Sequence record: OQ708376.1
Reading direction: 5' to 3' (one strand)
DNA length: 64,000 bases
Source of the DNA: Escherichia phage vB_EcoM_CRJP21
Position numbers and translations under genes: made by a program. The number at the start of each line of letters is the position of its first letter. Position 1 is the stretch's first letter. Shown piece by piece: positions 55,665 through 56,588 of the stretch. The notes beneath the pieces are model-generated. The model made no database searches and was not told the DNA's origin. It was given only the letters and a program-made list of their open reading frames with translations.

Positions 55665-56588
55665 AAACAAGCGAAAAAAGCACTGAAAACTAAGACTACT
55701 TATGGTGTTCTAGTTTGCACAGTACTTGTCGCTGCGATTGGATTTTATGGTTTTTCTCAAAATGATCGTGTATCATCATCGGACGAAAGTCAGGTACACA
55801 ATTTAAAACCACAAGTTACGCAAATTCAAAAGCAGGAATTACCAAAGGTAGAAATATCAAAGGATGTTCCACGCGGCGAGAAGCATTATACGGTTCAACC
55901 TGGTGATAGTTATTATTCTATTGCTAAAAAGTTTAAACCTAAAAATGTACAACTTGAAGAGTATGTTATTTTGTTGAAAAATATCAATTTAAATGCTACT
56001 CTTCATACTTCTCAGGGTATCTTTATCCCAACAAAAGAGGATTTGAAGAACGTATTGTTACCAGATGTGACTGTACTGTTTGATTATAATGATCCAGAAA
56101 TTGTCAATCACATCAAAGAAGCTGAAGGTTCAATTGAATTTCAGTCCAAGAACAAACGCCGTTTACTTGGTGGGAAAGTCGGAGTTCCTTTCCACAATTC
56201 TAAATTTCATCCCTACAAGGACATGAAAGGTAATTATACAATAGGTTATGGGCATTATTTGGGTAGAAAAGAATCTGATGCGATTAAGTACAGAAACGGT
56301 ATTACCAAAGCTCAAGCCAATAAACTTTTAATGCAAGATATGAAAAGAACATATAATGACTTTTTATTATTGATGCAGAAAAAAGAAGCAGTAAATCTGA
56401 CCAAAGAACAACAACGTATTCTTTATGAAATGTCCTATACAATGGGTGTTGATAAATTAGCAACGTTTAATAAACTTTGGAAAAGTGTGAAAAATGATAA
56501 CCCTAAGAAATTTAAAAAAGAAATTATGAATTCCTTATGGTATCGTCAAGTTACAAACCGAGCAGATTTGTTGTTAAGTTCACTCTAA
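55665..56588 (+). CDS. LysM-domain, T4-lysozyme-fold (GH24-like) cell-wall protein with N-terminal membrane anchor
   Basis: probable TTG start after AGGAGG; TM YGVLVCTVLVAAIGFYGF; LysM HYTVQPGDSYYSIAKKF; C-terminus parallels T4 lysozyme; ORF runs 55629-56588. Confidence 0.6.
   Translation, partial: KQAKKALKTKTTYGVLVCTVLVAAIGFYGFSQNDRVSSSDESQVHNLKPQVTQIQKQELPKVEISKDVPRGEKHYTVQPGDSYYSIAKKFKPKNVQLEEYVILLKNINLNATLHTSQGIFIPTKEDLKNVLLPDVTVLFDYNDPEIVNHIKEAEGSIEFQSKNKRRLLGGKVGVPFHNSKFHPYKDMKGNYTIGYGHYLGRKESDAIKYRNGITKAQANKLLMQDMKRTYNDFLLLMQKKEAVNLTKEQQRILYEMSYTMGVDKLATFNKLWKSVKNDNPKKFKKEIMNSLWYRQVTNRADLLLSSL

Follow-up and report, generated by a model that had tools for sequence, protein, structure and literature searches.

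The gene and its start codon

The sequence considered here is a stretch of 64,000 nucleotides (nt) from Escherichia phage vB_EcoM_CRJP21 (OQ708376.1), referred to throughout as the window. It contains a gene for a membrane-anchored lysozyme of 308 amino acids (aa), which carries a transmembrane (TM) segment, a LysM module and a lysozyme domain of the T4 type. The open reading frame (ORF) is gene 532 of Escherichia phage 121Q (YP_009102119.1), labelled in RefSeq as ‘LysM peptidoglycan-binding domain-containing protein / lysozyme’, and both its start and its stop agree with RefSeq. The product is called gp532 below. Over the 1.3 kb around the gene, the nucleotide identity to phage 121Q is 99.8%, and other Asteriusvirus jumbo phages, among them PBECO4, phAPEC6 and Sharanji, match the same segment at 98-99%. 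The gene begins with a non-ATG codon behind a Shine-Dalgarno (SD) sequence and is preceded by a conserved non-coding leader. The coordinates of these features are collected in Table 1.

Table 1. Features of the gene 532 locus and of related loci. Positions are those of the window unless preceded by a locus name.
Feature	Position	Strand	Basis or remark
Coding sequence, 308-aa membrane-anchored LysM-GH24 muramidase	55662..56588 (including stop)	+	RefSeq match; PHROG 15410 over full length, E 3e-173; orthologues 121Q gene 532, phAPEC6 gp293c, CBB_187, GAP32 gp180, RaK2 ORF029
TTG start codon	55662-55664	+	RefSeq start of 121Q gene 532; TTG/GTG at the homologous position in 9/11 relatives
SD sequence AGGAGG	55652-55657	+	Kept in relatives; 4 bases before the TTG start
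Nearly invariant non-coding block, TGTAGAAAGTCC-GAT-GAGGC-TTTTGCAAAT	55577..55606	+	Nine-phage alignment
Small leader hairpin, arms GAGGC (55592-55596) and GCCTC (55608-55612)	55592..55612	+	Sequence comparison
Anti-SD tract UUGCCAUCUUUGUGAUUGC	55614..55632	+	Predicted to pair with 55641-55660, covering the SD
SD-containing partner strand of the sequestering helix	55641..55660	+	Duplex prediction, RNAalifold
Single TM/signal-anchor, aa 13-31, TYGVLVCTVLVAAIGFYGF	55698..55754	+	Crude Hessa sum; conserved hydrophobic block in both family alignments
LysM peptidoglycan-binding module, aa 75-122	55884..56027	+	Pfam; AlphaFold2 model
GH24 (T4-lysozyme fold) catalytic domain, aa ~140-308	56079..56585	+	Pfam; PDB and hhalign matches; AlphaFold2 model
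Glu155 codon, predicted catalytic acid (T4 lysozyme Glu11)	56124..56126	+	Alignments; ends helix 145-155, followed by invariant Gly156
23-aa insertion relative to T4 lysozyme, aa 158-180	56133..56201	+	Between catalytic Glu and first beta-strand; alignment with T4 lysozyme, gp586 and gp587
His178 codon, residue named in the preliminary description	56193..56195	+	Variable column
Asp187 codon (T4 lysozyme Asp20)	56220..56222	+	Alignments
Thr193 codon (T4 lysozyme Thr26)	56238..56240	+	Alignments
HPF/RaiA-like (Ribosomal_S30AE) protein	56605..56937	+	Directly downstream; adjacency kept in relatives at ~33% identity
i-spanin (124 aa), 121Q gene 511	46797-47171	+	Kongari et al. 2018, supplement
o-spanin (102 aa, lipobox LIISGC), 121Q gene 512	47168-47476	+	Kongari et al. 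2018, supplement
gp586, soluble 162-aa lysozyme, 121Q gene 586	L002:30346-30834	-	Outside the window; adjoins a gp25-like gene
gp587, 887-aa baseplate hub protein with C-terminal lysozyme, 121Q gene 587	L002:30871-33534	-	Outside the window
P0081, family member with cytoplasmic N-extension	L013:229-1446
P0080, family member with cytoplasmic N-extension	L014:23-1225
HPF/RaiA genes beside the lysozyme in metagenomic relatives	L013:1548-1916; L014:1237-1566

The first in-frame methionine of the ORF is M188, and no in-frame ATG lies ahead of the TM segment. A preliminary description of the locus, made from the sequence alone, had proposed a non-ATG start directly after AGGAGG, and on both counts it was correct; no upstream ATG start has come to light. 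Its choice of position 55665 was wrong, however, as this is the first base of codon 2, three bases from the true start. A longer reading from the in-frame TTG at 55629 (P0001, 319 aa), preferred by some gene callers, was rejected. This codon has no SD and is located within the anti-SD tract, and the extra residues are missing or out of frame in relatives.

The non-ATG start is retained across several genera. TTG is found at the homologous position in the 121Q-like phages, phAPEC6, A4, CBB, GAP32 and fHe-Yen9-04, and GTG in EJP2, Hallingskeid and 7t3, while ATG is used only by RaK2 and, per annotation, by XaC1 among the eleven relatives. In every TTG or GTG case, AGGAGG or AGGAG is present 4-5 nt 5′ of the start. 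For comparison, TTG initiates 5 of 63 annotated coding sequences in two sampled regions of 121Q. The fact that the start has switched between TTG and GTG yet stayed weak suggests selection for low initiation.

Domain architecture and catalytic residues

From the N-terminus to the C-terminus, gp532 consists of a Lys-rich tail, one TM segment, a disordered or low-confidence linker of ~40 aa, the LysM module and the GH24 domain. The Pfam family Phage_lysozyme (PF00959) matches aa 182-289 at 1.5e-11 (45.1 bits against a cutoff of 22.3), and LysM (PF01476) gives a partial match above threshold at aa 76-92. T4 lysozyme is matched at ~1e-7 in the PDB and with a probability of 97.7% by hhalign, at a sequence identity of only ~26%. 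PHROG 15410, to which no function is assigned, spans the whole protein; the next best family is that of the baseplate-hub lysozymes, which matches from aa 127 on.

An AlphaFold2 model built on 32 homologues has block-mean predicted local distance difference test values of 76-95, mostly 86-95, over aa 73-308, with aa 1-72 unstructured or of low confidence. The LysM profile match coincides with a beta-alpha-alpha-beta unit at aa 75-121 of the model, and a helix at aa 145-155 leads into the two-lobed T4-lysozyme fold. Taken together, the Pfam, PHROG and AlphaFold2 results therefore indicate that the TM-LysM-lysozyme architecture is real. The N-terminal anchor, the LysM motif and the C-terminal T4-lysozyme region, with its GNYTIGYGHYL and SLWYRQVTNRA segments, had all been recognized in the preliminary description.

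The same description placed a His at the position of the catalytic Glu11 of T4 lysozyme, and offered variant chemistry or a non-catalytic peptidoglycan binder as consequences. Neither proposal is supported by alignment with the two paralogues gp586 and gp587, which are respectively 35% and 31% identical to gp532 and share with it the motif (I/L)KExEG(S/T)...YQ, the EG-insertion-YxD layout and a 13-aa insertion ahead of YxD. A direct hhalign comparison of the family with T4 lysozyme ended at residue 15 of the latter, leaving the insertion unbridged, and MAFFT with the paralogues as intermediates was needed. The MAFFT alignment opens a gap of 23 residues in T4 lysozyme between L13 and R14, and sets E155-G156 on E11-G12, D187 on D20 and T193 on T26. 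Thirteen of the inserted residues are common to gp532, gp586 and gp587, and gp532 has ten more; Q161, R166, L168 and G171 are invariant within the insertion.

The E155-G156 pair is found 30 residues before Y185, in the motif (I/L)K-x-x-E-G-(S/T). In the AlphaFold2 model, E155 closes the first helix of the GH24 domain, as Glu11 does in T4 lysozyme. E155, G156 and D187 are invariant in the 32 homologues (46-88% identity), as is T193, and in 12 further relatives from an exhaustive HMMER search, down to 28% identity, where T193 is replaced once by Ser. Across the 44 family sequences examined, E155-G156 thus never varies. H178, on the other hand, is seven residues before Y185 and is reached by counting back from YKD without gaps, as Glu11 is from Tyr18 in T4 lysozyme. 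Its column holds H, Y, R, K, Q, N or S in the 32 homologues, most often Lys. The His appears at the catalytic position because the 23-aa insertion is ignored in an ungapped alignment. The predicted canonical GH24 triad of Glu155, Asp187 and Thr193 is complete and conserved, and gp532 is probably a catalytically competent muramidase.

The conserved 5′ leader

The ~190 nt upstream of the start were aligned in nine phages. The alignment contains a nearly invariant non-coding block of 30-35 nt, with the consensus TGTAGAAAGTCC..GNGNCTTT(G)TGCAAA over the nine phages and an invariant portion that includes GUAGAAAGUCC; in other clades the block reads GTAGAAAGTCC..GNGNCTTTGTGCAAA. The flanks have diverged, and the encoded proteins are only ~50% identical. 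The block occurs once in the window, as part of a structured leader at 55546-55661, and leaders of this kind are found in Asteriusvirus, Mimasvirus, Eneladusvirus and 7t3-like phages.

In metagenomes the block has eight matches, each closely followed by a homologue that starts with TTG or GTG, and the ATG-start representatives (RaK2, XaC1 and L013) are without it. A pattern search of 185,579 bacterial and archaeal genomes returned no occurrence, no relevant Rfam match was obtained over 55400-55800 even at E values up to 10, and the block was not found in the searchable literature. An earlier search of viral contigs with a short degenerate pattern yielded ~120 loci, only four of which had a lysozyme homologue downstream. 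Nearly all of those matches were therefore due to chance, and the search was replaced by a protein-anchored one and a longer pattern.

Approximately 20 distinct leaders were collected, of which 16 were trimmed and analysed for anti-SD pairing. In all 16, a tract that precedes the SD by 30-45 nt is predicted to pair with the SD region of the same leader, at -11 to -24 kcal/mol and with z-scores of -2.2 to -7.6 relative to shuffled sequences; the values for the window are -19.1 kcal/mol and -4.0. Among 77 SD-bearing genes of the window, the upstream:SD duplex of gene 532 ranks first (-19.9 versus a mean of -7.2 ± 3.2 kcal/mol). Cognate anti-SD:SD pairs average -14.9 kcal/mol, compared with -7.7 ± 3.0 for partners drawn from other clades, and this gap is block-level covariation in the predicted pairing. 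RNAalifold, applied to eight Mimasvirus and Eneladusvirus leaders, recovers the SD-sequestering helix with two covarying pairs, in one subclade, and a further helix joining the two invariant halves of the block.

The stem of the small hairpin also covaries between clades, as GAGGC/GCCUC, GCGAC/GUCGC and GCGGC/GUCGC, and likewise a second hairpin just upstream of the block. The single-sequence fold of the leader has a z-score of -1.6, which is not significant alone, and comparative analysis was required. A competing pairing, in which an SD-mimic in the block would bind the anti-SD tract, is weakly supported (-10.7 versus -7.4 ± 2.0 kcal/mol for non-cognate pairs). The leader is read as a putative translational brake that would mask the ribosome-binding site.

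Two other elements of the upstream region were considered and set aside. The conserved GTTTCGAAGTAG, a candidate -10 box, corresponds in the Mimasvirus clade to the end of the upstream ORF and the 5′ arm of a covarying hairpin. A small upstream ORF of 12 codons, beginning at 55590 within the leader, is not shared by the other clades.

The second-strongest upstream:SD duplex in the window (-18.3 against the mean of -7.2 kcal/mol) belongs to a 263-aa ORF at ~62446 (+), probably a T4 gp13-like neck or head-tail adaptor equivalent to 121Q gene 548. This ORF may be another translationally masked gene.

Promoters and surrounding genes

No T4-type late promoter (TATAAATA) is present upstream of gene 532. 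Across the whole window it is strongly depleted, with three sites where 12.7 ± 3.9 are expected, and its absence upstream of this gene is therefore uninformative on timing. The depletion is seen despite a gp55-like late sigma factor in 121Q (gene 591). Sigma-70-like hexamers upstream of the gene (TTTACA-17-TAAAAT and TTGTAA-16-TATACT) are no commoner than in shuffled sequence and were not used. No transcriptomic data for Asteriusvirus were present in the papers checked.

Downstream of the lysozyme, the order of genes for HPF/RaiA, CCA-adding enzyme, NudE and glutaredoxin is kept in CBB and GAP32. RaK2 has the same order, but the HPF gene is not annotated. The adjacency of lysozyme and HPF reflects either a functional pairing or a very stable synteny. 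The two spanin genes overlap by 4 nt and are located on the same strand as gene 532, 8.2 kb upstream of it. Directly after them is an HNH endonuclease-like ORF (47433-48089).

Small conserved proteins with a single TM segment flank the region, at 54737-54868 (+; 43 aa, PHROG 37784) and 57400-57585 (+; 61 aa, PHROG 4189). The former is conserved as GAP32_177 and CBB_184. The two are possible, though unsupported, holin or antiholin candidates. Adjacent ORFs at 57576-57992 and 57979-58401 (+; 138 and 140 aa) overlap at their ends and belong to the same PHROG 20693, which points to tandem duplication at this site. The ORF at 56991-57386 contains a related domain, PHROG 17453.

Membrane anchorage and proposed function

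Residues 2-11 of gp532, ahead of the TM segment, include five Lys, and by the positive-inside rule an N-in/C-out topology is inferred. On a crude Hessa-scale sum, the insertion energy of the TM segment is +1.1 kcal/mol, against a median of +0.1 over the family. The same sum gives +0.5 for P1 Lyz and +0.8 for P21 R. By this crude measure the segment would be marginal, as are the TM domains of signal-arrest-release (SAR) endolysins.

The protein and its architecture are already known, both from RefSeq and from print. Buttimer et al. 2017 (PMC5259590) described CBB_187, GAP32 gp180, 121Q gp532 and the RaK2 homologue as the predicted endolysin of the Rak2-like phages, with an N-terminal TM segment, a LysM-like middle part, clearest in 121Q, and a C-terminal lysozyme. 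The precedent of signal-arrest-release was pointed to for the family, and the CBB orthologue was stated to inhibit the growth of E. coli on induction (data not shown there). The RaK2 paper records three lysozymes per genome. In the 121Q-like phages, the other two GH24 proteins are gp586 and gp587, and LysUE1, 96% identical to gp586, is lytic in vitro (PMC12805682).

The favoured interpretation, held with moderate confidence, is that gp532 is a type-II (N-in/C-out) membrane-anchored periplasmic muramidase, most likely acting as the Sec-exported and translationally throttled endolysin of a 121Q-like jumbo coliphage. The Sec system would insert gp532 and place the LysM module and catalytic domain in the periplasm, where LysM would dock the enzyme on glycan strands and the GH24 domain would cleave the MurNAc-GlcNAc bond as T4 lysozyme does. 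Such a holin-independent exported endolysin would act together with the spanin pair 8 kb upstream. The synthesis of this toxic enzyme would be curbed twice at translation, by the weak TTG or GTG start and by the pairing of the anti-SD leader with the ribosome-binding site.

A number of observations weigh against this interpretation. Gene 532 is surrounded by metabolic, early-looking genes (HPF, CCA-adding enzyme, NudE, glutaredoxin). A scan of its neighbours for holin and lysis genes found none, all being in PHROGs of unknown function with no holin or pinholin adjoining, and in fEgEco12 the ±14 kb around the gene contain no annotated holin. The soluble T4-type lysozyme gp586 of the same phage, whose orthologue is lytic, could be the true endolysin. 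The structure of the leader is predicted, and covariation within clades is modest.

Alternative explanations

One alternative is a classical SAR endolysin, in which a pinholin depolarizes the membrane, the TM segment exits the bilayer and only the released enzyme is active. This is possible but doubtful. The marginal insertion energy of the TM segment, the Gly and Ala in the family TM pattern, the mechanism proposed in print and the toxicity on induction, typical of SAR lysins, all speak for it, and the preliminary description was reasonable in raising it. Against release stand the tail of five Lys, as SAR-type N-termini are short and weakly charged, and a Gly/Ala/Ser/Thr fraction of 0.37 in the TM segment, compared with 0.53-0.63 in P1 Lyz and P21 R. 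Two mechanisms of SAR inactivation are known, P21-type refolding and P1-type disulfide caging. In gp532, ~110 residues, with the linker and LysM among them, separate the catalytic domain from the TM segment, and the sole Cys (C19) is not conserved and lies inside the TM segment, leaving none in the periplasm; neither mechanism would therefore apply. No pinholin was identified among the scanned neighbours. Furthermore, the relatives P0080, P0081 and P0083 (28-34% identity) have a mutually homologous N-domain of ~80 aa before the TM segment. In the P0080 and P0081 loci, translation of this domain begins at an ATG preceded by an SD (AAGGAGG in the P0081 locus), and no alternative start is present near the TM segment. 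With cytoplasmic domains of this size, these relatives cannot exit the membrane N-terminus first. SAR release is thus possible for the short-tailed clade, but would not be the defining mode of the family, and the comparison leans towards a gp532 that is tethered or only partly releasable.

Stable tethering is the basis of a second alternative, considered rather unlikely, in which gp532 is not the terminal endolysin and soluble gp586 is. The anchored muramidase would remodel or locally open the sacculus in the course of infection, or couple wall hydrolysis to the state of the host with the adjacent HPF/RaiA. Besides the N-domains of distant relatives, which preclude release, the Lys-rich tail and linker-LysM layout are reminiscent of a bitopic enzyme, anchored yet able to reach the wall. 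The lysozyme-HPF pair is kept down to ~33% identity, the neighbours are neither structural nor lysis genes, and filamentation and bulging precede the burst of cells infected by Sharanji, whose gene is 98% identical. The presence in the same phage of a soluble lysozyme of the T4 type, active in its orthologue, is what allows a tethered wall-remodelling role to be entertained. However, tight translational repression and toxicity suit a lysis enzyme at least equally, synteny within a single lineage of phages may by itself account for the HPF adjacency, and bulging ahead of lysis does not single out one mechanism. An extension of this proposal, in which the leader would be a new phage-specific sensor RNA (of a ligand, protein or RNA processing) gating the tethered muramidase and forming, with HPF/RaiA, a module of wall hydrolysis and ribosome hibernation tied to host state, is speculative and quite improbable. 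Far less credible is a lysozyme fold whose catalytic Glu is replaced by His: the ungapped count that leads to H178 is outweighed by the variability of that column, by the conserved E155-G156, D187 and near-invariant T193, and by paralogues with the same layout, one of them active through its LysUE1 orthologue. Least probable of all is a lysozyme of the virion, in its tail or baseplate, as labelled in some GenBank records, with the baseplate-hub family as the best non-self PHROG match. The labels can be traced to the resemblance of the domain to that of gp587, the actual hub protein (887 aa), and an N-terminal membrane anchor is unfit for a tail component. In virion mass spectrometry of phAPEC6, the gp532 orthologue gp293c was undetected and the hub lysozyme gp241 was detected; ‘tail lysozyme’ is therefore an annotation transfer.

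The Rak2-like jumbo phages have two candidate endolysins, one anchored (gp532) and one soluble (gp586), which is relevant to the mining of enzybiotics. What is new is modest: the conservation across related phages of the weak TTG or GTG start and of the leader that would mask the ribosome-binding site. These two apparent translational brakes, both conserved, offer a tractable example of control over a toxic gene in a jumbo phage. The relatives with cytoplasmic N-domains advise caution against calling every lysin with an N-terminal TM segment ‘SAR’.

Comparison with known systems

The predicted endolysin of the Rak2-like phages (PHROG 15410) belongs to the same gene family as gp532, and the protein itself does not differ. 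The 2017 description does not cover how the triad maps once the insertion of 23 aa is bridged, that the non-ATG start is conserved, that a leader is predicted to mask the SD, or that some relatives are extended into the cytoplasm at the N-terminus. Among the GH24 proteins of the same phage, gp586 differs from gp532 in being soluble, without TM segment or LysM, and gp587 in being a large virion protein. T4 lysozyme (gene e, PF00959) is likewise a soluble protein, of 164 aa, which is cytoplasmic and holin-dependent and has no TM segment, LysM or insertion of 23 aa between Glu11 and Asp20.

P1 Lyz and phage 21 R, and also phiKMV gp45, are muralytic enzymes with an N-terminal, marginally hydrophobic TM segment, holin-independent Sec export and toxicity when produced alone, and gp532 is predicted to resemble them in these respects. 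In these SAR enzymes, the SAR helix directly adjoins the catalytic domain and is part of its regulation, and the tails have few charges. In gp532, by contrast, a 40-aa linker and LysM intervene, the tail holds five Lys and a regulatory Cys is missing, and large N-domains on the cytoplasmic side are present in some relatives.

The leader has its nearest parallels in other SD-sequestering leaders, such as translational riboswitches and RNA thermometers, in which an upstream anti-SD tract likewise pairs with the ribosome-binding site. A second, SD-like upstream tract, which could compete for the anti-SD, is a further point of resemblance. Early transcripts of T4 gene e contain a hairpin that occludes the ribosome-binding site, which the predicted gp532 leader resembles. 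Unlike riboswitches and thermometers, the gp532 leader has no counterpart in Rfam, and its block of 30-35 nt is limited to one gene in one group of phages.

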